NCBI GenBank assembly: GCA_026625185.1
Contig: CP113000.1
Span: 30,001 to 62,000 of the forward strand
Origin: Thermodesulfobacteriota bacterium
GTDB taxonomy: Bacteria > Desulfobacterota > WTBG01 > JAGOGO01
Reading direction: 5' to 3'
Length of the DNA: 32,000 nt
Shown here one piece after another: positions 9,074-26,992 of the stretch (its first letter is position 1; every line of letters starts with the position of its first letter). Made by a program: the position numbers and the translations under genes. A model generated the notes under the pieces. It was not told where the DNA came from. It made no database searches and saw only the letters and a list, made by a program, of their open reading frames with translations.

Positions 9074-9422
9074 AGACCCTTCCAGAGAAAAAATTTTTTA
9101 TTTTTTTAAATACTTCCGTGGGGTTTAAAAAAACCCCAAAACTTTGAAAAAATATTATCAAATAAAAAGTCAAATTGCAAGAAAAACTACCATAAAATGT
9201 GTAGGTTTACTTTTTTACCACAACATATTGTATTAAAAAAGATTATTCCAGATTTTGCAAAAAGACGGAAAAGAGGTTCTATTTTCCGAAGCTTAGCAGT
9301 AACCGATTATCACGCGGCTTGATAAGCATCCACATTTCCTTTATAAAAAATTTTACCCCTCTTTTTTAAAAAATCAAAGTCACTTGCGATCCGGCAGGGA
9401 CTTCGACCGGATGTTTTCCTCC

Positions 9423-10632: not shown

Positions 10633-11136
10633 TTATTTCTCACAGAACGCAGCCACAATCTCGCCAAAGTAAACTCTGTGGTAATCATGCGAGGCATAGT
10701 TATCCTGAATGGTCCTATCCACAAACCCCCTGGGATCCATATCCTGAAAGTACATTTTCCGGCATTCAAGTATAAGACTCGCTTCGTTGTATGATGGAGC
10801 GGACACCTTGCTGGATGCCTTCAAACTAAGCCCGGTTTTCGACAATTTGTCGCCATCCCGGCCGGAGAGCGTGCCGAGTGTCTGCAGGTCTTTGCGATAT
10901 TTTTCGGGAAAAGCGCACACGGTAAAGGAGTCAGACTTATCCATATGCTTGCGCGTGTGCCGCTGGGGTCTTACTACCACCTGCACAAAAGGCTTGTTCC
11001 ACATACATCCAATGCTGCCCCATGCCACGGTCATCATATTGCAGTCATCAAGGGTTCCTGCCGTCAGGACCAGCCACTGCTTCATCCACAACCCAACCAC
11101 ATCAACTGATAATTTTGTCACATCAACTTCAATCAT
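10633..11136 (-). CDS. Flavin reductase-like (FMN-binding split-barrel) protein
   Basis: The ORF track has a TTG start at 11151. The ATG at 11136 is preceded by GGAGGA at 7 nt. MMTVAWGSIGCMWNKPFVQVVVRPQRHT matches the flavin-reductase-like domain pattern. Confidence 0.7.
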   Translation of the reverse strand: MIEVDVTKLSVDVVGLWMKQWLVLTAGTLDDCNMMTVAWGSIGCMWNKPFVQVVVRPQRHTRKHMDKSDSFTVCAFPEKYRKDLQTLGTLSGRDGDKLSKTGLSLKASSKVSAPSYNEASLILECRKMYFQDMDPRGFVDRTIQDNYASHDYHRVYFGEIVAAFCEK

Positions 11137-11497
11137 TACATCTTCCTCCAAATTCCAATATAGTTATTGTGATCAGCATAAGACCCCTATCAAAATTTCA
11201 GCCTGAACAGATTAGGCTTACCCACTAAATAAAAAAGGCCCTTACGTTTCTGCCTGGCAATCCGGCCTTGTTTTATTCTCATTAAATTTAAAGCCCTTTC
11301 CCTTGCTTTCATCTTAAACAAAGTTCCTTATGGTTTTTCTCCCGATAATTCGGGACTTTTTTGGATTTACTCCTTACCGGGAAAAAAGTCAATCAGGATT
11401 TATCTTTTTTGGGGATTAAATTATACTTTTCAGTAAATAAAAAAACCAGAAATGGAGGGTTTTAAAAGGAAAAAGTGAGTGTTTATCCTCTGTTTAA

Positions 11498-11626
11498 AAA
11501 TTATCTAAAGAAGCATATGCCTGGGCTAAGCAGCGCAATTGCCGAAAGGCAACAGTCAGCCGGCAGTTCACAAAGAACGATGCCCGCAAGAAACTTAACA
11601 GACATTACCAGACTATCAGAAATTAA
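11498..11626 (+). mobile_element. C-terminal remnant (~42 codons) of an IS630-family transposase
   Basis: My own frame translation gives ..EAYAWAKQRNCRKATVSRQFTKNDARKKLNRHYQTIRN*. This matches the IS630-type C-terminal signature recalled as aaWeaeRN......vdWrFTteDARiKLkrLYP. An in-frame stop lies immediately upstream, and no DDE domain or start codon is present. Confidence 0.5.
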
Positions 11627-11642
11627 TGTTGCGAAACAGTAA

Positions 11643-12128
11643 GCGTTATTAAAAAAACATACACTCAACGCTCCAGCGATTACCTATGAAAAAGCACGTG
11701 GGACTGATAACTTTAAAGCCATTGTAAATAACGTCAATAGTTTCTTGGGTACTGAGGAGTCTAAAAAAGAGCCTGCTGGAAAAGAAACCTCAGCCACCTC
11801 CGGTAAAAAAATCCTGATCAAGGATTTTATTGTGAAAGAAGGAAAGGTTACTCTGGTCACCTCGTTGCTTGCCGGCAAAAGTATAAGCGCTCCGCTTCCT
11901 GATATCCATCTTACGAATTTAGGTGGTGAAGGACAGGGTGCCTCTCCCGGTCAAGTTTTTGGAGAGATTTTTAAAGCACTGCACGAAAAAATAGCTTCTT
12001 CTGCGGTGACTGATACTCTAAACCAGGGACTCAAAGAACTGGGAAAGAGCAGGGGAGGGGCAGGTGAAGGCGCGAAAAAACAGGCAGGAGCAGTAAAAGA
12101 AAAATTCAAAGGGTTATTGGGCAAATAG
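11643..12128 (+). pseudogene. 5'-truncated fragment of a larger gene (AsmA-like / DUF748-like C-terminal region), possibly still expressed from TTG at 11745
   Basis: The frame is open from 11643, directly after a stop, with no ATG; the ORF track uses TTG at 11745. KKILIKDFIVKEGKVTLVTSLLAGKSISAPLPDIHLTNLGGEGQGASPGQV resembles the extreme C-terminus of long AsmA-like proteins. It sits 17 nt downstream of the IS630 remnant. Confidence 0.4.
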
Positions 12129-12431: not shown

Positions 12432-13229
12432 TTATTTAACTGCCTTGGTAAAAGGCATACGGAAGAGGGCGAAAAAGGTTAATGCTGAGGCATGGGGGTA
12501 AGCCCCAATCCCGATTCGAATTTTTTCCTGATCCACATCTCGCAAAAACGTTTTTCCCATGCGATCCCATAGAGAAAAAATGGTGCCATAATTCGTATTG
12601 CGTTGTTTGATAATGACCGAGTGATGAATCCGGTGCATGGAGGGAGGAACAAAAAGAATCCAGAAAAGCTTTTCAAACCAAGCGGGAACTTTAACCGAAC
12701 TATGGTGAAACTGAGCGCACAAGACTATTGTACTTTCAAAAATCACAAGCCCCAATCCCGTTGGTCCCAGCAAGAAAATAAGGACTATTTTTAGAATAGC
12801 AGAAAATGTCAACTCTCCGATGTGGAAGCGGGTGGCAGTAGAAACGTCCATATTCAGGTCAGTGTGATGAACTCGATGAAATCTCCAAAAAAAAGGCATC
12901 TCATGGTTAACGCGATGCCAGAGGTAGAGAATAAAGTCAAAAACAAAAAGGGTCGCAACAAATTTTACCCACCTTGGAGATGAAAGCGTGGCGAGAAGGC
13001 CGATATTATTTTTTTGAACATATTCGAGGCTGGCAAAAATCAATGAGGCAAAACAAAGCTTAAGCACCAGGCTGTTAAAAAAAGTAATTCCAAGATTGTG
13101 CACCCATCGCCGGGATTTTGAAACTGTGATGGGGCGATACGGTATCGAAAGTTCGGCAACGAGAAAAAATACCAAGCCACCCAAAAACAAAAATAGTCGA
13201 ACGGATTCTTTATCGTGAAATGGCGTCAC
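12432..13229 (-). CDS. Fatty acid hydroxylase / sterol desaturase family membrane protein
   Basis: Histidine boxes HRVNHE, HRVHH and HRIHHS lie in a multi-TM protein. The ORF track start (13310) would overlap the upstream gene by 85 nt. I prefer GTG at 13229, which forms a GTGA stop/start overlap with the DedA gene. Confidence 0.8.
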   Translation of the reverse strand: MTPFHDKESVRLFLFLGGLVFFLVAELSIPYRPITVSKSRRWVHNLGITFFNSLVLKLCFASLIFASLEYVQKNNIGLLATLSSPRWVKFVATLFVFDFILYLWHRVNHEMPFFWRFHRVHHTDLNMDVSTATRFHIGELTFSAILKIVLIFLLGPTGLGLVIFESTIVLCAQFHHSSVKVPAWFEKLFWILFVPPSMHRIHHSVIIKQRNTNYGTIFSLWDRMGKTFLRDVDQEKIRIGIGAYPHASALTFFALFRMPFTKAVK

Positions 13230-13930
13230 TCGCCATGCCCTCCGGCAGAATATTTTTTCTTTATGGCCGTCAAGAGCCGGGGCGCAAGAATAAAAAGCCC
13301 GAGCACACAAAAGGCAAGCAGTATTCTTATGGAAAGAACATCTTTCACGGAGGTAATTTTTGTTAGTTGACTGCCGGCAAAAGAATAGACCAAAGAACCA
13401 GGGAAAATCCCCAGGGAGGTGGTCCAGATAAAAGTCTTTACCGGGATTTTGGTAAGCCCGGCAAAGAGGTTAATCAAAAAAAAAGGAAATAGGGGTATGA
13501 AACGAAGGGTGAGTAAATAATGGGGGCCATGCTGGGCTACCTCCTGGTTGAAGCGACATAGTTTTTCTTGGTATTTATTCTGAATCCAGGTGCCAGCAAG
13601 GTATCGGGAAGATAAAAACGCCACGAGCGCCCCAATGGTTGCACCAATGTTTACATACACCGCTCCCATGAACGCTCCAAACACAAAGCCGCCTCCCATG
13701 GTGAGAATGGTAGCCCCGGGCAAGGAAAGACCAGCCACCAGGATATATATCACAACAAACATTCCAACGGATAGAAGATAATTGCCAGCCGCGAAGTTTT
13801 GGAAAAAATTTTTGTGGTGTTGGAGATTTTCAAACGTTAAGGGCTCCGGTAATGTGGTAAAGCGGAGAAAAACAATGAGCGCAACAAAGGCTATTAATAG
13901 GATGATACGCTTATGCATTGACGTGCTCAC
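13226..13930 (-). CDS. DedA / TVP38-TMEM64 (SNARE-associated) family membrane protein
   Basis: 234-aa multi-TM ORF. Motifs LSLPGATILTMGGGFVFG and RFIPLFPFFLINLFAGLTKIP are typical of the family. GTG start in a GTGA overlap with the DUF2064 stop, with AAGGGA 9 nt upstream; an alternative ATG lies at 13918. Confidence 0.8.
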   Translation of the reverse strand: MSTSMHKRIILLIAFVALIVFLRFTTLPEPLTFENLQHHKNFFQNFAAGNYLLSVGMFVVIYILVAGLSLPGATILTMGGGFVFGAFMGAVYVNIGATIGALVAFLSSRYLAGTWIQNKYQEKLCRFNQEVAQHGPHYLLTLRFIPLFPFFLINLFAGLTKIPVKTFIWTTSLGIFPGSLVYSFAGSQLTKITSVKDVLSIRILLAFCVLGLFILAPRLLTAIKKKYSAGGHGE

Positions 13931-14649
13931 AATAAATTTTCCCTTACGGTAGGATTGGTTGTCAAAAATGACATGGTTTTTGAGTTTTTAAAAGGCGATT
14001 GCCTTCCGCGCTGGATAAGATTTTTTAAATCGCCTAAGCTATCGATGTCATGCCAGGGAGGCAAAATATAGGTTTTGTGTCCGGCATTTTTCAGCTTCGC
14101 TAACGATTCTTCAAAAACCTTATCAGTGCTCCATCTGATACCGGTAAAGGCTTCCGGAAAAAATGTTTCTTTTCGAAAACCAATCAGGTAATATCCTCCA
14201 TCAAAAGCTGGTCCGATCACGGAATCCATTGTGGTGATACTTGAAAAGGCCTCGGTTATGAAATAGGAAGGTAAGTCGGGACTGTCGCTCCCGATAGTAA
14301 TGACGCGGTCAAATCCTTGTGAAAAGGCATGGGTAAAACAATGCTTCATTTTCCCCCCCAGGTCGTTTCCCTGTTGAGGAAGATAAGAATGATTTTCGCC
14401 CAACCATGCTTTGCATTCTCGCGCTTTGTTTTCCTGAAAATAACAAATATAGAATGGAATGGCAAGCGGTTCGAGCATGGCAAGTAAGTCGAGGACAAAA
14501 TGCCGGTAGAGTTCAACAATGTTTATTGCCGCAAGAGAAGCAGCGAGCCGACTTTTAATTTGTCCACTTTCCGGGTATTTTACAAAAAAGAGCACACAGC
14601 GGTCATCAAAAGTGTTCGGGCGGTCCGAATGCTTGGTTGTGGTTGTCAT
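13927..14649 (-). CDS. DUF2064 family protein (TIGR04282-like 'transferase 1, rSAM/selenodomain-associated', now named arsenosugar-biosynthesis glycosyltransferase)
   Basis: The ORF track start (14739) overlaps the upstream giant gene by 61 nt. The ATG at 14649 (MTTTTKHS...) removes the overlap. CVLFFVKYPESGQIKSRLA, VITIGSDSPDL and GPAFDGGYYLIG match the DUF2064 pattern. Confidence 0.7.
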   Translation of the reverse strand: MTTTTKHSDRPNTFDDRCVLFFVKYPESGQIKSRLAASLAAINIVELYRHFVLDLLAMLEPLAIPFYICYFQENKARECKAWLGENHSYLPQQGNDLGGKMKHCFTHAFSQGFDRVITIGSDSPDLPSYFITEAFSSITTMDSVIGPAFDGGYYLIGFRKETFFPEAFTGIRWSTDKVFEESLAKLKNAGHKTYILPPWHDIDSLGDLKNLIQRGRQSPFKNSKTMSFLTTNPTVRENLL

Positions 14650-14678
14650 AAGTTTTTTAACCTTCTCAAGCCTACTTA

Positions 14679-17600
14679 TTATTCCTGTGCCCGGATTTGT
14701 CCCGCTTGGTCCCAGAGCGGGCACCCCGTTCGGATACATTCCTTATTGAGGTTGAATTGAGTGCATCTTAATTCGGTTTCTGCCGGCAAGAAATGTTTCA
14801 GATATTTCAGGGAAAGCTGCGAGGCAGTTTTTAACGCGAGCCATGATTCTCGCTGGCAACATCGGGCAGCTTTATAGCGGGCAATTCTTCCAGCAACCGA
14901 ACGGGTAATGTTCATAACGATTTGTCTTTTTTCTCCGGCATAGGGATTAGCTTTTAAAATTATTGAAAAAGCTATGCCCACGCCCATTGCCGCTCCGCAG
15001 ATACCTAAAAAAGAACAGGCCCCTCCGACAATAGTTTTTCCCTGCTCAATGGCAGTAAGGATATCCTGGCCAGTACTATTCCCTCCTAAATTTTTGTAAA
15101 CCGAAAGAATGATTGCGGGAACCAGGGAGTGATGTTCTGGTCCCTGCATGTTCAGGGAGGGATGAGTTCTGATTTTTTGTAAGAGTGCGATCATATCTCT
15201 ATGAGGTGCGTTAAGGCAGACCGACTGGATTACTTCCAGGGCATCACGGGAGTGACACTGATCACAAATAAAATGTCCGTCCACACAAATGGCATTCGAT
15301 AGGCATAAGCGACCACAATAAAAACATTCTGAGTGGTGCGAGTCCGAGAGATACTGAAGCTCCTTCCCACAAACCACACAGCCCGTTGCAGATTTGTGAG
15401 CTCCGGTTTCGGGTCTTCTGGCTTGGCTGACTTCGGGCGAAGGGGAGCAACAACAGGTGGCCTTTTGTTCGACATTAGTATTTGTTCCCTGTTGATCAAA
15501 GACAAAAAAAGATTCGTTTAAGGAAACCCTTGACGGAAAATTAAGGTGTTGTGGTTTTCCCCTCCGGATTATTTTTCCATCATCACTTATCACTGCATTA
15601 AAGGGGCCCCGATACAATATTTGTTGCGAACACGTTGGTTCCGGTTTGCAGGCGGTGTAGGTAAGCGAATAAAATTTATGATCTTCAATCTGGCGGTATA
15701 AGAAGCGTTTTTGAACAAAAATTTTTTCAAAGCTTAAATCTTCAAGCAGGGCAAACAGCTCCGATTCCTTCATGGCGCCGCCAAGACACTCCCCCCTCAG
15801 CTTTTCGTTATATTGAATTTCGAGGGGTACATTCCCTTCAGAAACAATATCGCAAATACACAACCGGCCTCCAGGCTTCAGGATTCGTTTTACCTCCCGA
15901 AAGGTCTGCCGTTTATCGGGCGATAAATTAATCACACAATTGGAGATAACCACATCAACGCTTTCCGGGGGTAGGGGAATTTCTTCAAGAAGTCCTCGGA
16001 TAAACCGAACATTATTAAATCCGAGGACGGTCGCTACTTTTTCGGCAATGTTCCGGGCTCGGTTAAGCATCACGGGCAACATATCAATGCCAATGATCAA
16101 GCCTTGGGAGCCGACTTTTTTTGCTCCCATAAAACACTCCACTCCAATGCCGCATCCTAAATCGACCATGGTTTCTCCCGGGGAGAGTGAACAATCCAAT
16201 ATTGGGCTGCCGCACCCATAACTGCAAACTCGGGCCTCTGAAGGTATATGAGAGATCTCTTCTTCAGGATAAGAGACCGGATTTACAATATCCGTATTGA
16301 GCGATTCAGTTGCGCGGGTATAAAAGGCGGTAACCCCGTCATGAAGGTTCTTTTTTGGGATAGACAGAAAACAGTTTGAATGGGTGAATGCAACGGGTGC
16401 ACTTTTTTCATCGCAGACAAGCAAACGTTCGCCCATGCGACACACCAAACCAACCTTATCATTTTGTTCATAACCTTTTGCTGCTTGAGCAAGAAGATAG
16501 AGAGCAATAAGATTATATAATTCTCCATAAGAATCAGCGCCCACAAAGGTTTTCCCAGCGATATAACTATGATCACAATCACCACCCCCGGTCAAAAACT
16601 TCAGGGGATTCCTTCCCTCTTTTTTATCCTGAATAAGGGAGCTGGTGCGCAGTTTTTTAAAGACCGGGCTTTTTTTCCAAACATTTTCTAACCCGTCAGC
16701 GATCGTTCCGGCAGCAAGCTCCCTTTCACCGATGAGCGCTGGTGATGGGTATATGGTTTCATCAGGTCCCACGGCAATGCTTTCCCAGCCGGCATTACTC
16801 AAATCAAATTTAGTCCCGGGAAGAGAAAAAATCTGAGACTTGATGCTTTCCACATTGTCAATGATTATGTTTTGGTGCCGAGCTTTTTCGTAGGCTTTCC
16901 TTAATTCGGAAAAAATTATGGAAGGAGGAACGAAGAAGTGCGGTTCCCCTTTTCCCTTTTTAAAAAACCAAAGATAATGGATATTGTTTATTTCCAGTTC
17001 TTGGGCAATAGTGACAATGGAAGCCATTTCCTGAAAATTATGCCGCGTGACCGTCATTGCTAGGGTAATGGGAAAACCAAATTTTTTCAAAAATCTCAGG
17101 GAAATCAGAAGGGCTTGAAAGGCCCCCCTTCCGCGGATGGTGTCGTGGGCTTTCTCTAATCCGTCCATGCTTATCTGGAAGTGAAGGCGGTCAGCGGGAA
17201 TTTTCTGCAACCATCCTTCAAATTTTCTCACATCCTTTCCATTTGTTAAAATAACCACACGAGTATCACCCTTTTTCAAGATGGCATCGCACGCCTCCTT
17301 TAACCCTGCATAGAGAAAAGGCTCACCTCCGGTAAAAAAGAAAACCTTGCAGCCTAAGCAATAAGCTTCGCCTATAGTGTTCATGAGTTTCCCATAATCC
17401 AGAGAAGTCTGAGTTTTCCGGTTTGATGAAAACATACAGTGCTTACAGGTCATAGTGCATTGGTCGGTAACATGAAACCAGCATTCTTTGAGGTTTTGGA
17501 GCTGGTGGTAATACCTGCGGCCGGGATATTTTGCTGGTCTACGATTATCAAAGCGGGATAATAAATTGTTGATAAGGAGCAAGGCTTGGAAAAAATCACA

Positions 17601-17780
17601 ACCAAATTTTTGATTGAATTTTTGGGCTATCGTGGGAAGAGCCCCCCCCCTTTTTAAGTTGCGAAGTATAAAATCTGCTTTAGGAGTTGGAATAAACCAA
17701 TCGGGTTTTTCAGGTTGAAGGTAAATGGGTATGGTATCAAATGTCAATCGCCGATAAGAATCTAAAATTTTCATAGTCAT
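14679..17780 (-). CDS. Tri-domain fusion protein: radical SAM enzyme + ArsM-type As(III) SAM-methyltransferase + C-terminal Cys-rich domain
   Basis: Uninterrupted 1033-aa ORF with a TAA stop. Radical SAM part: aa 108-115 CTMTCKHC (CX3CX2C) plus FFFTGGEPFLY. ArsM-like part (aa ~505-715): YGCGSP, VDLGCGIGVEC (SAM motif I), ISNCVINLSPDK, RGECLGGA. Linker with CCC (aa 776-778). Cys-rich domain (aa ~800-1033): CVVCG..CFYCG..CDQCH..GGACSFLGICGAAMG..RCC. Confidence 0.85.
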   Translation of the reverse strand: MTMKILDSYRRLTFDTIPIYLQPEKPDWFIPTPKADFILRNLKRGGALPTIAQKFNQKFGCDFFQALLLINNLLSRFDNRRPAKYPGRRYYHQLQNLKECWFHVTDQCTMTCKHCMFSSNRKTQTSLDYGKLMNTIGEAYCLGCKVFFFTGGEPFLYAGLKEACDAILKKGDTRVVILTNGKDVRKFEGWLQKIPADRLHFQISMDGLEKAHDTIRGRGAFQALLISLRFLKKFGFPITLAMTVTRHNFQEMASIVTIAQELEINNIHYLWFFKKGKGEPHFFVPPSIIFSELRKAYEKARHQNIIIDNVESIKSQIFSLPGTKFDLSNAGWESIAVGPDETIYPSPALIGERELAAGTIADGLENVWKKSPVFKKLRTSSLIQDKKEGRNPLKFLTGGGDCDHSYIAGKTFVGADSYGELYNLIALYLLAQAAKGYEQNDKVGLVCRMGERLLVCDEKSAPVAFTHSNCFLSIPKKNLHDGVTAFYTRATESLNTDIVNPVSYPEEEISHIPSEARVCSYGCGSPILDCSLSPGETMVDLGCGIGVECFMGAKKVGSQGLIIGIDMLPVMLNRARNIAEKVATVLGFNNVRFIRGLLEEIPLPPESVDVVISNCVINLSPDKRQTFREVKRILKPGGRLCICDIVSEGNVPLEIQYNEKLRGECLGGAMKESELFALLEDLSFEKIFVQKRFLYRQIEDHKFYSLTYTACKPEPTCSQQILYRGPFNAVISDDGKIIRRGKPQHLNFPSRVSLNESFFVFDQQGTNTNVEQKATCCCSPSPEVSQARRPETGAHKSATGCVVCGKELQYLSDSHHSECFYCGRLCLSNAICVDGHFICDQCHSRDALEVIQSVCLNAPHRDMIALLQKIRTHPSLNMQGPEHHSLVPAIILSVYKNLGGNSTGQDILTAIEQGKTIVGGACSFLGICGAAMGVGIAFSIILKANPYAGEKRQIVMNITRSVAGRIARYKAARCCQRESWLALKTASQLSLKYLKHFLPAETELRCTQFNLNKECIRTGCPLWDQAGQIRAQE
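14682..15386 (-). other. C-terminal Cys-rich domain of the fusion gene (DUF5714-like / C_GCAxxG_C_C-like; uncertain)
   Basis: Two CxxC pairs plus CDQCH resemble a zinc ribbon. These are followed by GGACSFLGICGAAMGVG and RCC..C..C..C. The family assignment is from memory only. Confidence 0.35.
15636..16268 (-). other. ArsM-like methyltransferase module of the fusion gene, with three candidate As(III)-binding Cys
   Basis: Cys523 (16212-16214, YGCG), Cys615 (15936-15938, SNCVINL) and Cys665 (15786-15788, GECLGGA) were verified at codon level. They correspond, from memory, to Cys72/Cys174/Cys224 of Cyanidioschyzon ArsM (YYGCG, VSNCVINLVPDK, WGECLGGAL). Confidence 0.7.
17436..17459 (-). other. 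Radical SAM [4Fe-4S] cluster-binding triad CTMTCKHC within the fusion gene
   Basis: Checked codon by codon on the reverse complement: tgc act atg acc tgt aag cac tgt. Confidence 0.85.
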
Positions 17781-17800
17781 CTTTCGCCGTTTGCCCGCAG

Positions 17801-18817
17801 TTATTTACCGTCAAAAAGAAACTCCGGCACTGCTTCCGGCCAGACCGTATTAACGGGAATGCGCGTGCCGGCTTCAAAGCCACCGGCAATTGTCAGCCGG
17901 GGGAGGATTTGAACATACATATGGTAAAAGGGAACGTGAGACAACGGATGGGGTGCGCTGTGAAAAAAGTAGTTAAAGTCTGGATTGTTCAGTTTGGCAA
18001 TATAGGCGGAGAGAACTCTTTTTAAGGCAATGGCGATATCGGTGAGCTCAACATCAAGGATATCTTCGTAGCAGGCAAAATGACGCTTGGGGACGATCCA
18101 GATTTCGTAAGGGGCACTGGCTGCATAAGGCGAGAGGACTGCCGAATGCTCGGTTTCAAAGCCTACTCGTTCCTTAAGGTGAAGTTCATGATCCAGTATT
18201 GTACAAAGCGCACAAGTACCATTGTCATCGAAAATTTTGTCCTGGACATGCATGGCGTTGCGGATTAAAGCAGGGACAATGCGGCTGCCAACAATCTGAG
18301 AGTGAGCATGGGTCTGCGAGGCACCAGCACTGGTTCCCTGATTTTTAAAGACAATCGTGACAAGATTATTGGGATTTTCCCTAAACAGTCGAGAAATTTT
18401 TAAATAGCTATTTAAGGTATTACAAATCTCCTCCTGGGACATGGCGCCCATTGGTCGGTTATGGATTCGACTTTCAATGACCAGATAATGGTTACCACAC
18501 CCTTGGTAATAGGAATAAATTCCCGATTTTTTAAAAGGCTCAGGACCTATGGGGCAGGTGGGAAGATCATCAAATAATTTGTATTTGTTATTGATTATTT
18601 TCGTAATCCATTTATCCGGTGAGGCACCACACGTATCAATTACCTCAAGGGGAAACTTTTCTTCGTTATCCGGACAAAAAGGGCACGATGGGGTATATTC
18701 CGGATGGTTTTCCAGAGACATAGTCGTTGGAGGGGCAAGGGCCCGCGGTTTTTCTCCACGTTCCGGGGCGATGACTGCCCAATTTCCCGTCAAAAAATTT
18801 TGTCTCAACTCAGACAT
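17801..18817 (-). CDS. Second GalT-like HIT-superfamily nucleotidyltransferase/phosphorylase (divergent paralog of 410..1408)
   Basis: 338-aa ORF: ELRQNFLTGNWAVIAPERGEKP, CPFCPDNEE zinc site, HAHSQIVG catalytic HxHxQ. Its stop lies 20 nt upstream of the fusion gene's start. Confidence 0.75.
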   Translation of the reverse strand: MSELRQNFLTGNWAVIAPERGEKPRALAPPTTMSLENHPEYTPSCPFCPDNEEKFPLEVIDTCGASPDKWITKIINNKYKLFDDLPTCPIGPEPFKKSGIYSYYQGCGNHYLVIESRIHNRPMGAMSQEEICNTLNSYLKISRLFRENPNNLVTIVFKNQGTSAGASQTHAHSQIVGSRIVPALIRNAMHVQDKIFDDNGTCALCTILDHELHLKERVGFETEHSAVLSPYAASAPYEIWIVPKRHFACYEDILDVELTDIAIALKRVLSAYIAKLNNPDFNYFFHSAPHPLSHVPFYHMYVQILPRLTIAGGFEAGTRIPVNTVWPEAVPEFLFDGK

Positions 18818-18905
18818 GGTATTCCCTTCGAGAATGGTATTGTGGATAAAGTTAAACCCCAGCCAAAGATCTCTTTAATTTATGCGGTGAGGATAATTTT
18901 TTATC

Positions 18906-19619
18906 CTAGCTGAAAACTTTTATATAATCAATAAAGGAAATAGATTTTTCTCCGGTGTTATCCGAGTCGTTCATAATGGCGAGACTGGCAATTGCCGGAG
19001 GCTTATGCCCAAATGCTTCATGATAATCTTTGATGATGTTTATCTCATGGGCAGACCATTTTCCCACATTCGTGTCACCTTTATCCAGGAGTATCATTTT
19101 TGATTTTTCGGTATAGGGGCTGGTAATTATTCTTTCAAGGTATTCCTTACTTGACCAGATGTAATTCAGACTACTGTCGGGCGGGTAATCTCCATACCCA
19201 AGCCTGGCAGCTTCGTACTTTACTCTTTCGAAGAAGGGCGATGCTTCCGGGTCATATTTGAATATTATATAAATTCGAATCGGGTAATCATCCCCTTGCT
19301 TAATTTTTGGATCACCTTTTCGATACCCATTTTCTATCCTCCAACGCCATTTAATCAGAGGGTAGTCATAAACATTAAAGGTGTTGCGGTACATGATACC
19401 GGATGCGGAATTATCGCTTTCCGCTTTTAAGAAACAATTACCGGCCTCACAGGTGACGCTGTATTGGGTATATCTTTTTATTTTAGGGAAATGGAGGGGT
19501 TTCCAGTTATCGAGGCTGTTAAAGTCCTCAAGGAAAAGCACTCCTGACTCCTGGGAAAATGAGGGAAAGGTTATAAGGACGATGCCGAGAATGAGGAAAA
19601 ATGAGAAACTTTTAGACAC
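18906..19619 (-). CDS. DUF3047 family secreted protein
   Basis: 237-aa ORF whose only available start is GTG, preceded by GGAGGA. Signal peptide SKSFSFFLILGIVLITFPSFSQE. LFLEDFNSLDNWKPLHFPKIKRYTQY and a beta-rich body fit DUF3047 as recalled. 8-nt overlap with the GT2 gene's stop. Confidence 0.6.
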   Translation of the reverse strand: MSKSFSFFLILGIVLITFPSFSQESGVLFLEDFNSLDNWKPLHFPKIKRYTQYSVTCEAGNCFLKAESDNSASGIMYRNTFNVYDYPLIKWRWRIENGYRKGDPKIKQGDDYPIRIYIIFKYDPEASPFFERVKYEAARLGYGDYPPDSSLNYIWSSKEYLERIITSPYTEKSKMILLDKGDTNVGKWSAHEINIIKDYHEAFGHKPPAIASLAIMNDSDNTGEKSISFIDYIKVFS

Positions 19620-20325
19620 TGCTTCCTCCGGGGGGGTAAAATTTTGCTAATTTTGTTGGCGATATGCCAAGATAATACAAAGTTAAGAGAAACCAATTTC
19701 TCAGGGTACAGTAAATCACTCCTTCTTTTTCCCAGCGGCGCGGAGATGTAAAAACCGGTTCAGAAGATATGAAGATTTTACCCCCTGATTTTTTAATCCG
19801 CTGCATTAATTCCACATCTTCCATTAACGGGATGTCCTTATAGCCACCCAGGCTTAAAAAATAATCTTTTTTTATAAAGATGGCCTGGTCTCCGAAGGGG
19901 ATGCGGGTTAAGCGGGAACGCCAGGAAGCAACCTTGGCGATGAGTTTTAACACTACTTTATCAGATTTAATGCCAAAGTCAAAGGCTCCGCCAATATATC
20001 CATCTTCTTTCAAAATAAGGCCTGCCTGTTGAAAGGCATTGCGAGGCAGGTGAGTATCCGCATGAAGAAAAAGTAAAATTTCACCCCGGGCCAGATGAGC
20101 CCCGGCATTCATCTGCCGGGCACGTCCAGGCCCTGAAGAAAAACATTGGATATTTTTTTGATGGATCGACTTAATGGTTGTTCCCTTTGGGTCCCCATCT
20201 ACCACAATTATTTCATAAAGCTCTTTCCCTTGGAGCCGGGCAAGACTCTCCAGAAGGTCATTAATGATAGGGCCTTCGTGCAAAGCCGGAACTATAATTG
20301 AAAATTTACAGGTCGTATCCTGCAT
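19612..20325 (-). CDS. Family-2 glycosyltransferase, TIGR04283-like ('transferase 2, rSAM/selenodomain-associated', arsenosugar-biosynthesis glycosyltransferase family)
   Basis: 237-aa ORF: FSIIVPALHE, EIIVVDGDPKGTT, GRARQMNAGAHLARGEILLFLHADTHLP, FGDQAIFIKKDYF..GGY.DIPLMEDVEL, TSPRRWEKEGV. These match my recollection of that family. Confidence 0.8.
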   Translation of the reverse strand: MQDTTCKFSIIVPALHEGPIINDLLESLARLQGKELYEIIVVDGDPKGTTIKSIHQKNIQCFSSGPGRARQMNAGAHLARGEILLFLHADTHLPRNAFQQAGLILKEDGYIGGAFDFGIKSDKVVLKLIAKVASWRSRLTRIPFGDQAIFIKKDYFLSLGGYKDIPLMEDVELMQRIKKSGGKIFISSEPVFTSPRRWEKEGVIYCTLRNWFLLTLYYLGISPTKLAKFYPPGGSSV

Positions 20326-20435
20326 AGTCAGGAAAAAATTTTTGTTTCTTTATTCCAGAGCAAAAATTTGATACACTAAATTTAAAATGAGCCTGGGGAA
20401 AAAATAAAAACCTCATCCCGAAAAAGGAGTAATCC

Positions 20436-20762
20436 ATGTCTTATCATAACCAACCGGTAACCATTACCCAATTTAAGTGGGCAGGTAAACTCGGCCCGGT
20501 GCGCATTAAGACAACCTGTGACCAATGTGACCTTACCACGGCTACGCTCCAGGATATGATGGAGAATGAATTCAAGGAGAAAAAGGTCGCCTTTGAGGTT
20601 AAACCCTGGCTTGATAATCTTTTTTACTGTCTTATACGAGGCACCTGGCACGCGCCGATTATTATGGTAAATGGAAAAAAATTTTACCAGTTCAGGGAAG
20701 AAGAACCGTTGTTCGACCGCGATAAACTGGCTGAGCACGTAAAAAAAGAATTGGGAAATTGA
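20436..20762 (+). CDS. Small thioredoxin/glutaredoxin-fold protein with CxxC (CDQC) motif
   Basis: 108-aa ORF with a strong RBS (AAAGGAG 7 nt before the ATG). CDQC is followed by a helix-like stretch, then HAPIIMVNGKKF (cis-Pro plus beta-strand pattern of the Trx/Grx fold). Divergent from the GT2 operon start. Confidence 0.5.
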   Translation: MSYHNQPVTITQFKWAGKLGPVRIKTTCDQCDLTTATLQDMMENEFKEKKVAFEVKPWLDNLFYCLIRGTWHAPIIMVNGKKFYQFREEEPLFDRDKLAEHVKKELGN

Positions 20763-20880: not shown

Positions 20881-21570
20881 TCAGGGAACAAAAAAATCAT
20901 CCCTTAAGCCAATATTAATAGCCACTTTCTTAAAGCTGGTCGTTTCAACAGGTCGATTTTCTTTATCAAAGCGATCAACCTGCATGGGGAGCCAGTTTTG
21001 TTTGGAGACCTGGAGGATGTATCGTTCGAGATCATTCCCCTGGATATAATCCAAGGCCCAAAAGGTGAAGGTTATTTGATCGCCGTCCTCAGCAGCGCTA
21101 TGTTCATTTTTCTCGATTACCTGACGGTTATTTATTATGAATTTAAGAAAATGCTTCACTGCCGTCTGGTCAATCCGCTGGCCGCTGGGAGTTTTAACCA
21201 GTGAATTTTCAATGGAAAATTCAATTTTTACCCAAGGCATTGACCGAAAGGGCCTGACGGTCAAAAAGTCCGCCCCTTCCTGGTAAAAGGCCGTTGTTCC
21301 TTTAAAGGGGTGAAAGAAATCAACCCGGATCAGGCCGGCTTTATTGCAGGAGAATTTAATCCAGTAATAATCAGAAGGTTCCCCATGGTTATAAAAGTGC
21401 ACCTCGGTTTCGCAGGTCAAATTCTCTATTTTATTAAACTCAGTCACCATTTTTTTGATCACCCGGAAAACATGGTCATTGTCTGGAATCTCGGGCGGAA
21501 ATTCCAAACCGGTTCCCACCATCAACACCAGGACGATACTTGCAATAAGGTACGCTTTATGAGCTTTCAT
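20881..21570 (-). CDS. LolA-fold / outer-membrane lipoprotein-sorting-like protein (uncertain)
   Basis: 229-aa ORF with an N-terminal signal/anchor (AYLIASIVLVLMVGTG) and a beta-rich body of the expected size for LolA/DUF1571-like proteins. ATGA overlap with the upstream gene's stop. The family call is weak. Confidence 0.4.
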   Translation of the reverse strand: MKAHKAYLIASIVLVLMVGTGLEFPPEIPDNDHVFRVIKKMVTEFNKIENLTCETEVHFYNHGEPSDYYWIKFSCNKAGLIRVDFFHPFKGTTAFYQEGADFLTVRPFRSMPWVKIEFSIENSLVKTPSGQRIDQTAVKHFLKFIINNRQVIEKNEHSAAEDGDQITFTFWALDYIQGNDLERYILQVSKQNWLPMQVDRFDKENRPVETTSFKKVAINIGLRDDFFVP

Positions 21571-23087
21571 TTGAAAACAAAGTTTTTTTCAAAAAGATCC
21601 GGGGCATCGAAATACGCACGTCCTACCAGTAAAATGGCATGGTGGCCTCTCTGGCGCATTGCCCCAACCGAGGGAATCCCCATGGGAAAAAAGATAAACT
21701 CCTCCTTTGGCCTGGTCGCCCCTTTCCCAACCCCCTTATGATCAAACATGCTTGCCCATTGGCCATTTTTCTCCGACAAGGACTCCAACGTGTCATAAGG
21801 CAGAAGAGTATAACCAGGTTCACCCGGAATTGGAGAGACAGCGAGCACTCGCACCACCTGATGCCATCCGGACATGGTGCGGATACCGAACCGCTCTCCG
21901 GGGCCAAGTGAAGGGAGCCACTGGGGAACAAAGGGATCAAGGCTAAACTTTTTCGCCCTTACCTGAACCACTGATTCTCTTTTGGGAATGAAGAGGTGGT
22001 AACACCCACAGTTATTCATAATATCAACCATAAAGGGTTCACCCTGAGAATCGATCGAAACCCGGAAGGTCAACCCGTCCACATTTCCGCGTTCGATCCA
22101 GGGTGAATTTTTCCCATTTCGTTTGGGAAACCAGATGACATAATTAATTTGCAGGACCGGGGCATCTTTCACGAGAGCTTGGGTGAGGTAATAATAAATT
22201 GCTGGTTTTTCTGAATTGATGGCAAGCGCATCCCCTTTCCAAAAGACCTCTCCAAATTTATCGTAATCGGCCACGATATCCTGAATAATGACCGGGGCAA
22301 AAAAGGAGGCGACCTTTTGTGTCACTTCTTCAGTCAACCACGGAACCCCCAGAGAATTTCTTTTCGACCTCTCGAGGAGCAACCGAATCTCTTGTTTATT
22401 CAAAGGGGGCCCTGACGCAGGGCCAAACCGGACCAACTTTCCCAGTATGGGGAGATCATCAAACTCAATCTGATAGGTTGATTTAAATTTTTTATGAATC
22501 TGATCAGTCCCCCGGATAACCGGAATCAAAAAACCCGGGTAAAAACCAATGATCCGCCTCATCACCGAGTATTCATCCGGTATGGTGAGCCGGGACACAA
22601 ACGCTTCATAAAGCCCGGGCTGGGATTTTTCAGACGTATAGAGTTTATCGGAGCAAAATTCCATTTGTTTGATCAGACCGTCGCGGTCTGGGTTCCCATC
22701 CTTGACAAAACCGAGTGCCACCACCGCTTCATGAGGAAGGTTTTGGATTTCTTTTTTTCTCGCGTTCAGGTTTAATTGACGCATCCACTCAATTACCTGT
22801 TCTTTTTGGGGATCGTCCTTGATTTTTTCAGCCACGCAAGCAAGAAAACGATTAGTTCGAAGGTAGGGGAAATCAGGTACCGGAAAAGTGGAGGCATCCT
22901 TTACTCCGGTATTAATCACGGCTTTATCCAAACGAGCAAGAAATTCCTGGCTCTCCTTTGACCTTCCCAACAAAAAGCCGGCCTTGAAACATTCCAGGGT
23001 AGCACAACCGCATCCCAAAAAAATGAGCAGAACCAATAAGAGCCGCCAGGGCCGGATGGGTTTTTTGGTGCCTTCAAAAGTTTTCAT
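21567..23087 (-). CDS. Conserved hypothetical lipoprotein (506 aa), no family recognised
   Basis: Long ORF with a lipobox-like signal (LLLVLLIFLGCGC). Its start lies 8 nt after the stop of the desaturase remnant frame. Coding-like composition. Confidence 0.6.
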   Translation of the reverse strand: MKTFEGTKKPIRPWRLLLVLLIFLGCGCATLECFKAGFLLGRSKESQEFLARLDKAVINTGVKDASTFPVPDFPYLRTNRFLACVAEKIKDDPQKEQVIEWMRQLNLNARKKEIQNLPHEAVVALGFVKDGNPDRDGLIKQMEFCSDKLYTSEKSQPGLYEAFVSRLTIPDEYSVMRRIIGFYPGFLIPVIRGTDQIHKKFKSTYQIEFDDLPILGKLVRFGPASGPPLNKQEIRLLLERSKRNSLGVPWLTEEVTQKVASFFAPVIIQDIVADYDKFGEVFWKGDALAINSEKPAIYYYLTQALVKDAPVLQINYVIWFPKRNGKNSPWIERGNVDGLTFRVSIDSQGEPFMVDIMNNCGCYHLFIPKRESVVQVRAKKFSLDPFVPQWLPSLGPGERFGIRTMSGWHQVVRVLAVSPIPGEPGYTLLPYDTLESLSEKNGQWASMFDHKGVGKGATRPKEEFIFFPMGIPSVGAMRQRGHHAILLVGRAYFDAPDLFEKNFVFK

Positions 23088-23095: not shown

Positions 23096-23374
23096 TCAGG
23101 TAGTTGGTTTAATTAGTTGTTTTTTTCTTAACGCCGAAGGCCAAGTAAAATCCACGCCGTAGGATTGACTGAGTAAATTACTCGAAATACGGGCGGATTC
23201 GTAAATCGTAGGGAGCCCGCTTCCTGGGTGCGTGCCGCCACCAACGAGATAACAGTGTTCAAGTTCTTCGAACTTATTGCGCGGCCGAAAATATAAAAGC
23301 TGTCTAAAGGTGTGGGCAAGGTTGAAAGTCGCTCCGATGTAAACATTATACGTATTTTTCACTCGCTTTGGGGG
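23096..23374 (-). pseudogene. Orphan 3' fragment of a CrtI-type phytoene/dehydrosqualene desaturase (C-terminal FAD-binding motif), in the +1 frame relative to the upstream desaturase ORF
   Basis: The translation YNVYIGATFNLAHTFRQLLYFRPRNKFEELEHCYLVGGGTHPGSGLP matches the CrtI C-terminal signature (Pantoea: [49 protein letters not shown]). There is no N-terminal part in this frame. Confidence 0.6.
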
Positions 23375-24734: not shown

Positions 24735-24754
24735 AAGCATTCTCCTCGTTTTGA

Positions 24755-26215: not shown

Positions 26216-26410
26216 AAACGGCATCCTTTTATTTGATAGATAAGTGGTTTCACTTCTAAGAAATTTCTAAGTTTTATTAGAGCAAAATCTGACAACTACT
26301 GCTTATTATATATAAAAAAAGAGATAACGCAATCAGGGCATTAAATTTTTGACCATCCACAACACTATCAAGCACCGCAAACTCCAGCCGATTGTGCGAA
26401 TCCAGTTGGT

Positions 26411-26761
26411 TTAAACAAGAAAATTAATTCCTTTGAGATCAAATCCCCGGGTGAGCCGGTAGTGCCGGGGCACTTGCAGGAAAGCGGTAGAACACCAGAT
26501 AAGTATAATAAGAATAAAGTTTGACCATACCTGCAGGGGAAGCAGTCCGGCAAGGTTGATGATTGCGTCGTGATCGCCGGCTATTTTTTGCCACGCCCCG
26601 GTTTTGGTGGGGTCTGCTTCCAATATAAAAACGCGGGGAGAAAAAGGAAAGGGTTTTTTAAGGTTGCGTGAGAGGACGGTTATTTCATGACCTTGCTCAG
26701 CAAGCGCGAAGGTCAGGAAACGCCCAATAAATCCTGATCCCCCGGTTAAAAAAATTCTCAT
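26411..26761 (-). pseudogene. Remnant of an SDR-type NAD-dependent epimerase/dehydratase (YfcH/TIGR01777-like); only ~72 N-terminal residues recognisable
   Basis: MRIFLTGGSGFIGRFLTFALAEQGHEITVLSR...HDAIINLAG is the Rossmann N-terminus of ~300-aa proteins. After INLAG the frame turns into non-homologous hydrophobic sequence and stops at 116 aa. No other frame continues the homology convincingly. Confidence 0.6.
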
Positions 26762-26992
26762 TTTTGTTAAGGGGTAAAAGGTTATTGATTTCCCTAAAAG
26801 ACCGCTATGTTTAATATACTAAAATTAGATAAAAATTTCTAATAATTTAGAAAAAAAATGACCATGCAAAACCGCAAAATAAGCGCACCTGATTCTCATT
26901 TTTTAATTTATTGATAGAAAACAAAGTTTTTGGTATTTTAAGATTATTTTATGAAACCACCATTACGAAAAACAAGGGGTTGTGGTTGATTT

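Follow-up and report, generated by a model that had tools for sequence, protein, structure and literature searches.

The window (32,000 nt, part of a contig of ~3.3 Mb) contains seven co-directional genes in the minus strand, between positions 12432 and 20325. All the corresponding ORFs are present where the initial annotation had placed them, and the tight spacing it described is confirmed. Their order is GT2, DUF3047, a GalT-like HIT enzyme, a 1033 aa fusion protein, DUF2064, DedA and a protein of fatty acid hydroxylase type (FA_hydroxylase, FAH). A short gene is transcribed divergently. The features are the following:

20436-20762, plus strand: divergent 108 aa CxxC (CDQC) protein, with an AAAGGAG ribosome-binding site and an ATG start
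20326-20435, no strand: divergent intergenic region of 110 bp, presumed from its position to be the promoter for both the operon and the CxxC gene
19612-20325, minus strand: GT2 glycosyltransferase, TIGR04283 ('transferase 2'), first gene of the operon (TIGR04283, 244.5 bits, cutoff 182; PF00535)
18906-19619, minus strand: DUF3047, exported beta-jelly-roll protein (PF11249, 230.7 bits, cutoff 27)
17801-18817, minus strand: GalT-like nucleotidyl transferase/phosphorylase of the HIT superfamily (TIGR00209, 104.4 bits, cutoff 102.1; PF01087, PF02744)
16341-17780, minus strand: N-terminal part of the fusion protein (aa 1-480), radical SAM domain and C-terminal extension without SPASM cysteines (PF04055, 67.1 bits)
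15441-16301, minus strand: middle part of the fusion protein (aa ~494-780), ArsM-type SAM-dependent methyltransferase (NF008823, NF040538, CmArsM structures)
14679-15398, minus strand: C-terminal part of the fusion protein (aa ~795-1033, including the stop codon), Cys-rich DUF5714 (PF18978, 184.4 bits, aa 851-1023)
13927-14652, minus strand: DUF2064, TIGR04282 ('transferase 1'), CofC-like nucleotidyl/glycosyl-transferase fold (TIGR04282, 181.2 bits, cutoff 134; PF09837, 110.7 bits)
13226-13930, minus strand: DedA/VTT-domain membrane protein (PF09335, 95.5 bits, cutoff 33.9)
12432-13229, minus strand: membrane di-iron hydroxylase/desaturase of the FA_hydroxylase superfamily, OlsE-like (PF04116, 94.4 bits, cutoff 31)

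The GT2 and DUF3047 genes overlap by 8 nt, a gap of 88 nt separates DUF3047 from the GalT-like gene, and 20 nt separate the latter from the fusion gene (14679-17780). DedA overlaps both DUF2064 and FA_hydroxylase, which has a GTG start, by 4 nt. The longest ORF for DUF2064 (13927-14739) overlaps the fusion gene by 61 nt; an alternative ATG at 14652 (MTTTTK...), which leaves a 26 nt gap after the fusion gene, is the likelier start. A consensus scan of 20326-20435 gave no convincing sigma-70 site, and the window gave no Rfam match. The divergent ORF looks like a real gene, conserved only in L003 among the compared loci. It had been described as a thioredoxin-fold gene: the gene and its CDQC motif are there, the fold appears only as a sub-threshold match (Thioredoxin_3, PF13192, E 0.11). 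Whether this protein is part of the system is uncertain.

The fusion protein had been described as a radical SAM/ArsM fusion. Both domains are present, and a third one, the Cys-rich DUF5714, had been overlooked. In the radical SAM part, the C108x3C112x2C115 motif (CX3CX2C) is invariant in 121 homologues, and the only invariant cysteines in aa 270-480 are C456 and C470. Its best families are generic rSAM/SPASM maturases, all far under their cutoffs. TIGR04167 (ArsS) is not among the top 25 families for this module, and hhalign only aligns its core with ArsS (151 columns, 21% identity). We have therefore ruled out that it is an ArsS, in agreement with the initial annotation. Since only the generic core is common to both enzymes, an ArsS-like reaction rests on analogy.

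The top five families of the methyltransferase domain are all ArsM types, while the best other family reaches 80 bits as compared with 216. Its score with the arsenite methyltransferase model NF008823 is 212.6-216.3 bits, below the cutoff of 263: the proposed ArsM type is supported by all the best matches, but not by the NCBIfam cutoff. The CmArsM structures 4FR0 and 4KW7 match this domain with E about 1e-30. C523, C615 and C665 (YGC523G, SNC615V, GEC665) align with C72, C174 and C224 of CmArsM, the As(III)-binding triad, and are invariant across the 121 fusion homologues. The first ArsM cysteine (C44 in CmArsM) has no aligned equivalent.

DUF5714 presents many invariant residues: CxxC...CxxC...C..H..CxxCH, C922, C928, C974-C975 (RCCQRE), C1006, C1015 and C1020. 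Its AF2 model is a confident one (pLDDT 85.2, pTM 0.82) and has a beta-hairpin followed by a helical bundle, with no match among PDB folds (best E 0.67). The C-terminal 250 aa of the fusion match the first 270 profile positions of MbdU, the 'metal-binding double selenoprotein' (NF045648, 127 bits for the whole protein). The two share a Cys-rich pattern, and DUF5714 corresponds to the N-terminal part of MbdU. According to a review (PMC13188914), MbdU has a 'CU' motif, to which the invariant C974-C975 pair would correspond. MbdU, however, is a selenoprotein that stands alone and continues with a further C-terminal half, while the domain in the window has cysteine throughout and is joined to two SAM enzymes.

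GT2 and DUF2064 belong to TIGR04283 and TIGR04282, as had been proposed: both are above the cutoffs. The 'arsenosugar' names of these families are derived from context. Homologues of GT2 (48-63% identity) adjoin ArsS, DUF2064, FA_hydroxylase, DedA and DUF3047, and in other lineages DUF2064 is a neighbour of the fusion protein or of ArsS, or is fused with one of them. The GalT-like protein has a CPFC zinc motif and a HAHSQ (HxHxQ) active-site motif. Its gene accompanies the cluster only in the window and in L003; in L168, a homologue with 44% identity is separated by about 5 kb from an ArsM-PHO4-ArsS-GT2-FAH set, and another is found with an ArsM-like protein, DedA and the aquaglyceroporin MIP in L166.

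DUF3047 has a signal-like hydrophobic N-terminal segment, in the window protein and in 8 homologues. Its AF2 model (pLDDT 94.4) only gives generic lectin/CBM/GH11-12 jelly-roll matches with Foldseek (TM 0.4-0.6). DedA shows a weak match to the undecaprenyl-phosphate transporter UptA; it is present in 15 of the 85 GT2 loci described below, and in about 23 of 80 genomes its gene immediately follows that of the fusion. The FA_hydroxylase protein contains the His boxes HRVNH, HRVHH and HRIHH, and its score with OlsE (81.9 bits) is far under the cutoff of 475. The arrangement GT2-FAH-DUF2064 recurs in many loci, and DUF3047 recurs in both ArsS-type and fusion-type clusters. The membrane and lipid families assigned to the distal end of the operon are correct. 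Nevertheless, the fusion architecture is not set apart by DedA, FA_hydroxylase and DUF3047, since these regularly accompany canonical ArsS clusters.

We have compared 165 related loci, 85 selected by GT2 and 80 by the fusion protein. The full seven-gene set is only found in L003, a close relative (87% identity), so the expected synteny in relatives does not hold beyond it: other loci contain subsets. Even so, the co-arrangement of these families is far beyond chance, it is repeated across many independent lineages, and natural gene fusions join the same families. Among the 85 GT2 loci, ArsS is present in 22, the fusion in one and both in none. No ArsS lies within 10 kb of the fusion in the 80 fusion loci or the window, and its reported absence is confirmed for the whole 32 kb window. 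The suggested anticorrelation between ArsS and the fusion is thus found at the neighbourhood level: they share the same accessory context, and never appear together in the 165 loci. For example, fusion-GT2-DUF3047-DUF2064-DedA (L160) mirrors ArsS-GT2-DUF3047-DUF2064-DedA (L149). The minimal operon, GT2-fusion-DUF2064, is found in L169. Natural fusions with GT2 are P0029 and P0031, while P0032/L170 combines the fusion, GT2 and DUF2064 in 1504 aa. ArsS is also found in such fusions: DUF2064::ArsS (L106), ArsS::GT2 (L124) and, in L127, a true ArsS (TIGR04167, 362 bits, cutoff 300) that shares a protein of 687 aa with an ArsM-like domain.

In the 165 loci, the same accessory genes are found beside ArsS or beside the fusion, never beside both. 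This alternation, together with the natural fusions, indicates that the fusion most likely replaces ArsS, and perhaps ArsM, in an organoarsenical pathway. We are inclined to consider the locus a variant of the ArsS/TIGR04282/TIGR04283 set, in which a non-orthologous three-domain protein replaces ArsS and probably also a separate ArsM. A sulfate-reducer-type bacterium would thus carry the accessory genes of a predicted arsenic-sugar pathway with a large, barely studied three-part enzyme in the place of the usual key enzyme, ArsS. Both transferases are bona fide members of this NCBIfam/TIGRFAMs set ('rSAM/selenodomain-associated transferases 1 and 2'), and loci of the ArsS type share the accessory genes DedA, FA_hydroxylase and DUF3047. 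The differences are the three-domain fusion in the place of ArsS, and the extra GalT-like enzyme, limited to the window and L003 and, loosely, L168.

A closely related known system is the cyanobacterial arsenosugar pathway of Synechocystis, with ArsM and ArsS (Xue et al. 2019, cited by PMC8552651 and by bioRxiv 10.64898/2026.04.29.721666). An ArsM-type methyltransferase is paired with a radical SAM enzyme in both cases and, if the logic holds, As(III) methylation would be followed by transfer of a SAM-derived carbon radical onto arsenic. On the other hand, the radical SAM enzyme in the window lacks DUF3641 and falls below TIGR04167, and both activities are in one chain, along with DUF5714. The host is also different, an anaerobic Thermodesulfobacteriota lineage. 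In the arsinothricin pathway (Burkholderia gladioli, Pseudomonas aeruginosa), the radical SAM enzyme ArsL makes the As-C bond and ArsM then methylates the organoarsenical, a similar combination. Nevertheless, the methyltransferase in the window is far below the arsinothricin ArsM model (NF040538, 170-175 bits, cutoff 500), and no ArsL-type match is found among the top families. In view of the glycosyl and nucleotidyl transferases in the operon, a ribosyl product seems favoured over an amino acid one.

Another precedent may be a 'novel ArsSM fusion protein' reported for a sulfate reducer from paddy soil, which we compare by citation only (Yang et al., Environ Sci Technol 2024;58:19266). As cited, it is also a radical SAM plus ArsM fusion in a sulfate-reducing host, linked with arsenic methylation. 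It could belong to the window family (about 1030 aa, with DUF5714) or be a true ArsS::ArsM fusion, like that in L127. In view of this citation, the initial statement that no member with this architecture has been characterised is doubtful. The three-domain enzyme of the window is widespread in oxygen-free habitats.

A possible mechanism may be proposed. As(III) would be captured on thiols, the candidate sites being the C523/C615/C665 triad and possibly the vicinal C974-C975 of DUF5714. The ArsM-type domain would then methylate arsenic with SAM. The radical SAM domain would reductively cleave a second SAM and transfer a SAM-derived carbon radical onto trivalent arsenic, forming a second kind of As-C bond. 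ArsS is reported to append 5'-dA to an organoarsenical, and in ArsL the C-terminal cysteines are those that hold arsenic (bioRxiv 10.64898/2026.04.29.721666). By analogy with ArsS, the transferred group would be 5'-deoxyadenosyl; alternatively, it might be a 3-amino-3-carboxypropyl group, as with ArsL. The CofC-like TIGR04282 protein and the TIGR04283 GT2 may activate an arsenic-bearing ribosyl unit and pass it to an acceptor, with the GalT-like nucleotidyl transferase joining in only in the window lineage. DedA (flippase-like), the exported DUF3047 and the di-iron hydroxylase would suggest a membrane-bound or envelope-located product, possibly lipid-linked.

Some observations count against such a pathway. 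Neither DUF2064 nor GT2 lies within 10 kb of the fusion in 64 of the 80 fusion loci. Most fusion genes are on their own or accompanied by DedA, in many Desulfobulbales amid housekeeping genes. In addition, among the 18 GT2 loci flanked on each side by 3 kb of sequence or more, 11 lack a neighbouring radical SAM partner. The fusion might be essentially an anaerobic arsenite methyltransferase, producing simple methylarsenicals for detoxification or an antibiotic-like methylarsenite. In that case, methylation would be the purpose of the radical SAM and DUF5714 domains too (for instance, through cysteine redox recycling or an extra radical methylation), whereas the transferase and lipid genes of the window would be optional additions or have a separate function. 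NCBIfam does contain further proteins in which ArsM is fused to a redox or metal-binding domain, AhpD and DUF2284 among them. We regard this alternative as rather unlikely: the three-domain protein is covalently fused with GT2 and DUF2064, tight GT2-fusion-DUF2064 operons are found in several phyla, and the fusion takes the position of ArsS. The intact, invariant radical SAM motif is also hard to reconcile with plain SN2 methylation.

Arsenic itself is a predicted substrate. The triad might instead bind a different soft element or substrate (Se, Te, Sb, a thiol or sulfur compound), the product being a seleno- or thio-sugar conjugate, for instance. ArsS, ArsM and DUF5714 have selenoprotein relatives whose roles are described as unresolved, the methyltransferase is under the ArsM cutoff, MerC is a neighbour in L166 and L168, and no arsR, acr3, arsC or arsenic transporter is found in the window, which counts against arsenic. 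We nevertheless consider this quite improbable, since the best family and structure matches are all arsenite methyltransferases, the very cysteines that bind As(III) in them are kept, and ArsS, the enzyme replaced in position, is reported to act on arsenic. Other lineages also have arsenic-flavoured neighbours: MIP (next to DUF2064 and the fusion in L017, and also in L166) and PHO4 (ArsM-PHO4-ArsS-GT2 in L168) suit the uptake of arsenite and arsenate. Finally, GT2, FA_hydroxylase and DedA might belong with the isoprenoid lipid genes (carotenoid/squalene-type) found upstream, a squalene/phytoene synthase (26993-28039), a CrtI-family desaturase (23096-24758) and an aldehyde dehydrogenase (24755-26224). 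They would make a glycosylated or hydroxylated lipid, the fusion being merely inserted. Synteny with L003 extends to the CrtI-like and aldehyde dehydrogenase genes, but this genome is so closely related that such synteny carries little weight. This last proposal is scarcely credible: GT2 passes TIGR04283 and only reaches 22.5 bits with the carotenoid glycosyltransferase CruG, two unrelated ORFs and the divergent gene separate both gene sets, and across the 165 loci GT2, FAH and DedA accompany ArsS, the fusion or DUF2064, not carotenoid genes.

The operon that we have analyzed, from a Thermodesulfobacteriota MAG, belongs to a known type of gene cluster, but the position of ArsS (TIGR04167) is taken in it by a different radical SAM enzyme.

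12432-20325, minus strand: operon of seven genes
14679-17780, minus strand: gene for the 1033-aa central fusion protein

The seven ORFs are found at the positions given in the initial annotation, and their spacing is operon-like. The GT2 and DUF3047 genes overlap by 8 nt, a gap of 88 nt separates DUF3047 from the GalT-like gene, which is followed by the fusion gene after 20 nt, and the DUF2064/DedA and DedA/hydroxylase overlaps are 4 nt each. The longest DUF2064 ORF starts at 14739 and overlaps the fusion gene by 61 nt. An alternative ATG at 14652 (MTTTTK) leaves a 26-nt gap and the TIGR04282-family match in the longest ORF starts at residue 50, so the ATG at 14652 is the likelier start. The GT2 and DUF2064 proteins had been assigned to TIGR04283 ('transferase 2') and TIGR04282 ('transferase 1'), and both score over the curated cutoffs.

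Family scores of the operon proteins
GT2: TIGR04283, 244.5 bits (cutoff 182), profile positions 2-221 of 221
DUF3047 protein: PF11249, 230.7 bits (cutoff 27)
GalT-like protein: TIGR00209, 104.4 bits (cutoff 102.1)
DUF2064 protein, CofC-like: TIGR04282, 181.2 bits (cutoff 134), profile positions 2-189 of 189
DUF2064 protein: PF09837, 110.7 bits
DedA: PF09335, 95.5 bits (cutoff 33.9)
Hydroxylase: PF04116, 94.4 bits (cutoff 31)

The divergent gene (108 aa) is equipped with a ribosome-binding site and codes for a CDQC motif; its thioredoxin-fold match is only sub-threshold. Rfam and tRNA scans across the 32-kb window gave no matches, and a promoter/terminator scan of the window gave nothing informative.

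The central protein had been described as a radical SAM enzyme fused to an ArsM-type methyltransferase. Both modules are borne out, but the protein does not consist of two domains: a third one, DUF5714, is also present. The radical SAM domain (aa 1 to ~480; PF04055, 67.1 bits, gathering score 29.5) has a CX3CX2C motif (C108/C112/C115), invariant in 121 homologues. Its top family matches are generic rSAM/SPASM maturases, all far under their cutoffs, and PF13186 (SPASM) has no match in the window protein. The extension after the core (aa 270-480) only keeps two invariant cysteines among these homologues, C456 and C470: The signature of a SPASM/twitch cluster is thus absent.

The methyltransferase spans aa ~494-780. 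The ArsM model NF008823 / PRK11873 gives 212.6 bits with the whole protein and 216.3 with the isolated domain, over profile positions 38-241 of 272, and its cutoff of 263 is not reached. The top five NCBIfam matches of the domain are all ArsM variants, the best non-ArsM family gives 80 bits. The arsinothricin ArsM model scores 170-175 bits, and solved ArsM structures are matched with an E of about 1e-30. Three cysteines, C523 (YGCG), C615 (SNCV) and C665 (GEC), invariant in the 121 homologues, align to C72, C174 and C224 of the reference enzyme CmArsM (4FR0/4KW7), its As(III) ligands. For C44, the first conserved cysteine of CmArsM, which the initial As(III) methylation requires, no equivalent was found within the aligned region. 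The ArsM alignments begin past C44, and the invariant C456 and C470 are found upstream of them.

In the DUF5714 domain (aa ~795-1033; PF18978, 184.4 bits, gathering threshold 26.2, profile positions 1-173 of 173), a CxxC...CxxC...C..H..CxxCH block is combined with an RC974C975QRE pair that is invariant. A further match of this domain is to the N-terminal portion of the 'metal-binding double selenoprotein MbdU', for which a review (PMC13188914) lists a 'CU' motif; the C974-C975 pair would correspond to this motif. This parallel, together with general knowledge of vicinal-cysteine arsenite sites, makes the pair a candidate As(III) site. A confident AF2 model (pLDDT 85, pTM 0.82) predicts a beta-hairpin followed by a helical bundle, and a fold search against the PDB gave no match for it (best E 0.67, TM at most 0.21). 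We found no mention of DUF5714 in the literature searched. Sequence records only call the fusion a 'DUF5714 domain-containing' or a 'methyltransferase domain-containing' protein.

Could the radical SAM domain be a diverged ArsS? BLASTP and profile-profile alignment rule this out, as only a common core is shared. A verified ArsS (10767-11723 in locus L083; TIGR04167, 416.7 bits) was used as reference, and ArsS membership was defined by at least 300 bits with TIGR04167 plus a C-terminal DUF3641 (PF12345). BLASTP of this ArsS against the radical SAM part of the fusion gives 22% identity over 178 aa; hhalign of 121 fusion and 18 ArsS sequences aligns 151 core columns with 21% identity (query 89-240, template 14-167). 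The top 25 families of the domain do not include TIGR04167. Nothing in the fusion corresponds to the DUF3641 half of ArsS, and PF12345 finds no match there. As the initial annotation had noted, no ArsS is visible in the window: phmmer with the verified ArsS finds none across the 32 kb, and none within 10 kb of 80 fusion homologues, the same search giving only weak core matches to the fusions themselves. No ArsS structure was found among solved structures.

The GT2 gene allows a direct comparison of both types of cluster. We have analyzed 85 loci with GT2 proteins 48-63% identical to that of the window.

Genes found near GT2 in 85 loci
DUF2064: 42 of 85
ArsS: 22 of 85
FA_hydroxylase: 21 of 85
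DedA: 15 of 85
DUF3047: 8 of 85
Fusion: 1 of 85
ArsS and fusion jointly: 0 of 85

The gene order is ArsS-GT2-DUF3047-DUF2064-DedA in one locus (L149) and fusion-GT2-DUF3047-DUF2064-DedA in another (L160). A third one (L091) has GT2-FAH-DedA-ArsS-DUF2064, FAH being an FA_hydroxylase-type gene, and L169 contains a minimal operon, GT2-fusion-DUF2064. Natural gene fusions are found with both enzymes. The 1033-aa type of protein is joined to GT2 in two homologues (P0029 and P0031), and to GT2 and DUF2064 in a third one (P0032, in L170, 8001-12515, 1504 aa). ArsS is joined to DUF2064 in L106 (11450-13195, 582 aa), to GT2 in L124 (2070-3833) and to an ArsM-like domain in L127, a true ArsS::ArsM-like fusion (7242-9302, 687 aa, TIGR04167 362.5 bits). 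From these neighbour counts, gene orders and gene fusions it follows that the fusion is in the ArsS position. It also follows that DedA, the hydroxylase and DUF3047 are not peculiar to this operon, but ordinary accessory genes of ArsS-type clusters.

The linkage of GT2 to a radical SAM gene is frequent, not obligatory, since 11 of the 18 GT2 loci flanked by 3 kb or more on either side have no such partner nearby. A compact GT2-FA_hydroxylase-DUF2064 trio is found in L081 (10001-12388), L082 (10001-12565) and about 15 metagenome loci, none of which has a radical SAM gene within 10 kb, so the transferase module can be separate from its presumed As-C bond-forming partner. TIGR04282 and TIGR04283 only receive passing mentions in the literature searched.

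The fusion family contains more than 590 clusters at 90% identity, of which at least 120 are full-length (43-84% identity), and is found in 440 species-representative genomes among those scanned. Carriers belong to Desulfobacterota, Thermoanaerobaculia/Acidobacteriota, Planctomycetota, Bacteroidales, Atribacterota, Fibrobacterota, Chitinivibrionales and Clostridia. They include sulfate reducers and metal reducers, and cultured examples are Desulfoluna spongiiphila AA1, D. butyratoxydans MSL71, Hydrosulfovibrio ferrireducens CB1MN and Malonomonas rubra. Conservation of the seven genes as a unit is not supported: Among 80 fusion loci with 10-kb flanks, the whole set is only present in an 87%-identical relative (L003), where the CxxC gene and, upstream, the genes for the CrtI-like protein and the aldehyde dehydrogenase are found as well. 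Of the 80 loci, about 23 have DedA after the fusion; 16 have DUF2064 in the vicinity, about 7 GT2, 3 DUF3047 and 2 the hydroxylase. In many Desulfobulbales the fusion gene, with or without DedA, is found amid housekeeping genes, which is also what de novo clustering of its neighbours gives there.

In Geopsychrobacteraceae the fusion is accompanied by DUF2064, a MIP aquaglyceroporin, a CobW-like GTPase, an ABC transporter, a MoaA-like radical SAM protein and a flavin reductase homologous to the gene at 10633-11151 (minus strand) of the window, 1.3 kb downstream of the operon. Such flavin-reductase-like homologues are near the fusion gene in five genomes of this family (e.g., L017, 3184-14686), whose loci also contain an MBL-fold protein and an NMT1/phosphonate-type ABC transporter bracketing the fusion gene.

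The GalT-like protein passes the TIGR00209 cutoff by a small margin only. It keeps a CPFC zinc site (CxxC) and the nucleotidyl-histidine motif HAHSQ (HxHxQ). The stricter equivalog PRK11720 is not reached (111.6 vs 448 bits), so the substrate need not be galactose-1-phosphate. Within such clusters this gene is lineage-specific. A second GalT-like HIT gene, 30% identical to it, is found at 410-1408 (minus strand, 332 aa, PF01087 and PF02744, with CPxC and HSHSQ motifs), which suggests a housekeeping copy and a specialised paralogue in the operon. In L168, a 44% homologue is separated by about 5 kb from an ArsM-PHO4-ArsS-GT2-rhodanese-FAH cluster. The closest non-trivial homologue (67%) is found in a Geobacter MAG (L166, 7250-15420), next to MerC, TetR, a CMD/AhpD-like protein, two DUF547 proteins, an ArsM-like methyltransferase (200 bits), DedA and a MIP channel. 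This metalloid-flavoured cluster is devoid of any radical SAM gene.

The nine DUF3047 sequences inspected all start with a signal-like segment. The AF2 model of the DUF3047 protein, built with an alignment of representative-library homologues, predicts a beta-jelly-roll with very high confidence (pLDDT 94.4). Foldseek only finds a generic likeness to lectins, CBM and GH11/12-type proteins, so no specific function can be assigned. The hydroxylase has the His boxes typical of membrane di-iron enzymes. It is not an OlsE equivalog (81.9 bits vs a cutoff of 475), only a member of the PF04116 superfamily.

The analysis itself shows the domain composition, the conservation of ligand and catalytic residues, gene linkage, gene fusions and the pattern of substitution. 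The best-supported reading is an organoarsenical scheme in four steps, in which we infer the substrate, arsenic, as well as the radical transferred and the product. Thiol-bound As(III) would be methylated by the ArsM-type domain, and the radical SAM domain would put a SAM-derived radical on arsenic. The CofC-like, GT2 and GalT-like enzymes would activate and transfer the arsenic-bearing sugar, and DedA, DUF3047 and the hydroxylase would handle a product located in the membrane or envelope. ArsS reportedly adds 5'-dA to an organoarsenical, giving DDMAA, and ArsL transfers a 3-amino-3-carboxypropyl group instead (bioRxiv 10.64898/2026.04.29.721666). We also suggest, quite tentatively, that the fusion may serve strict anaerobes as a self-contained As-C bond factory, which would capture arsenite on an unprecedented Cys-rich fold, methylate it and radical-alkylate it, yielding an undescribed lipid-linked or envelope organoarsenical together with TIGR04282/TIGR04283, DedA, the exported DUF3047 and the membrane hydroxylase.

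The fusion might also be no more than an anaerobic arsenite methylase, its neighbours being optional. Many fusion genes do stand alone, and Yang et al. 2024 (Environ Sci Technol 58:19266; cited in PMC12124457, PMC12478174 and PMC12685052) refer in their title to 'a novel ArsSM fusion protein', from an arsenic-methylating sulfate reducer, a wording which points in this direction. On the other hand, a plain methylase does not account well for the covalent fusions to GT2 and DUF2064, and we consider it unlikely, if worth serious attention. ArsSM may be either a member of the rSAM-ArsM-DUF5714 family or an ArsS::ArsM protein like that of L127; it is possible prior art for the central enzyme. That the system acts on another element, such as Se, Te or Sb, seems improbable. 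A glycolipid function linked to the isoprenoid genes which adjoin the operon is contradicted by the gene contexts in other loci, and is the most improbable of all. Family scores and contexts elsewhere also rule out GT2 as a carotenoid-glycoside enzyme. The upstream genes are as follows.

20881-23087, minus strand: two co-directional ORFs (229 aa, 506 aa), adjoining the operon upstream
23096-24758, minus strand: phytoene-desaturase (CrtI/CrtD) family gene, split into two overlapping ORFs (23346-24758, profile positions 1-439; 23096-23683, profile positions 422-491)
24755-26224, minus strand: aldehyde dehydrogenase
26411-26761, minus strand: truncated 116-aa epimerase fragment
26993-28039, plus strand: squalene/phytoene synthase, part of the same gene set

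The genes at 23096-28039 form a set of an isoprenoid-lipid type, C30-carotenoid-like or squalene-like, and the split CrtI/CrtD gene corresponds to a frameshift, a pseudogene or a sequencing error. The 229-aa and 506-aa ORFs have no match in Pfam or NCBIfam and no counterpart in the otherwise syntenic L003, where a second CrtI-like gene is found instead.

Complex organoarsenicals, arsenosugars and arsenolipids, are commonly attributed to algae and cyanobacteria. NCBIfam already labels TIGR04167, TIGR04282 and TIGR04283 as arsenosugar-biosynthesis proteins, so the concept of the gene set is known. The locus, with its putative chemistry, is not categorically new. Its interest lies in a replacing enzyme which is widespread in anaerobes, in a DUF5714 domain with a predicted fold that lacks relatives among solved structures, and in compact operons for resolving the later biosynthetic steps. 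If the fusion replaces ArsS, anoxic soils, sediments and groundwater would have a large unrecognised As-C capacity beyond methylarsenicals, and 'arsM' counts in paddy-soil metagenomes would be due in part to another enzyme. The compact operons and gene fusions would then be tractable for the functions of TIGR04282, TIGR04283, DUF3047 and DUF5714. If the tentative As-C factory were real, anaerobes would have their own way of making complex organoarsenicals, independent of the ArsS pathway of cyanobacteria, and anoxic sediments and soils would contain an organoarsenical that has yet to be described from them.

In several lineages, a pyridine-nucleotide-disulfide oxidoreductase (mercuric-reductase/Lpd-like) adjoins the fusion gene and DedA (12540-14676 in L170, 8392-9879 in L037); it may supply reductant for cysteine chemistry. 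A CzcCBA-type RND efflux system is found upstream in L170. Just past the 3' end of the operon, a 127-aa ORF with no family match (11745-12128, plus strand) is kept in L003 (E 2e-33), also on the strand opposite to the operon.
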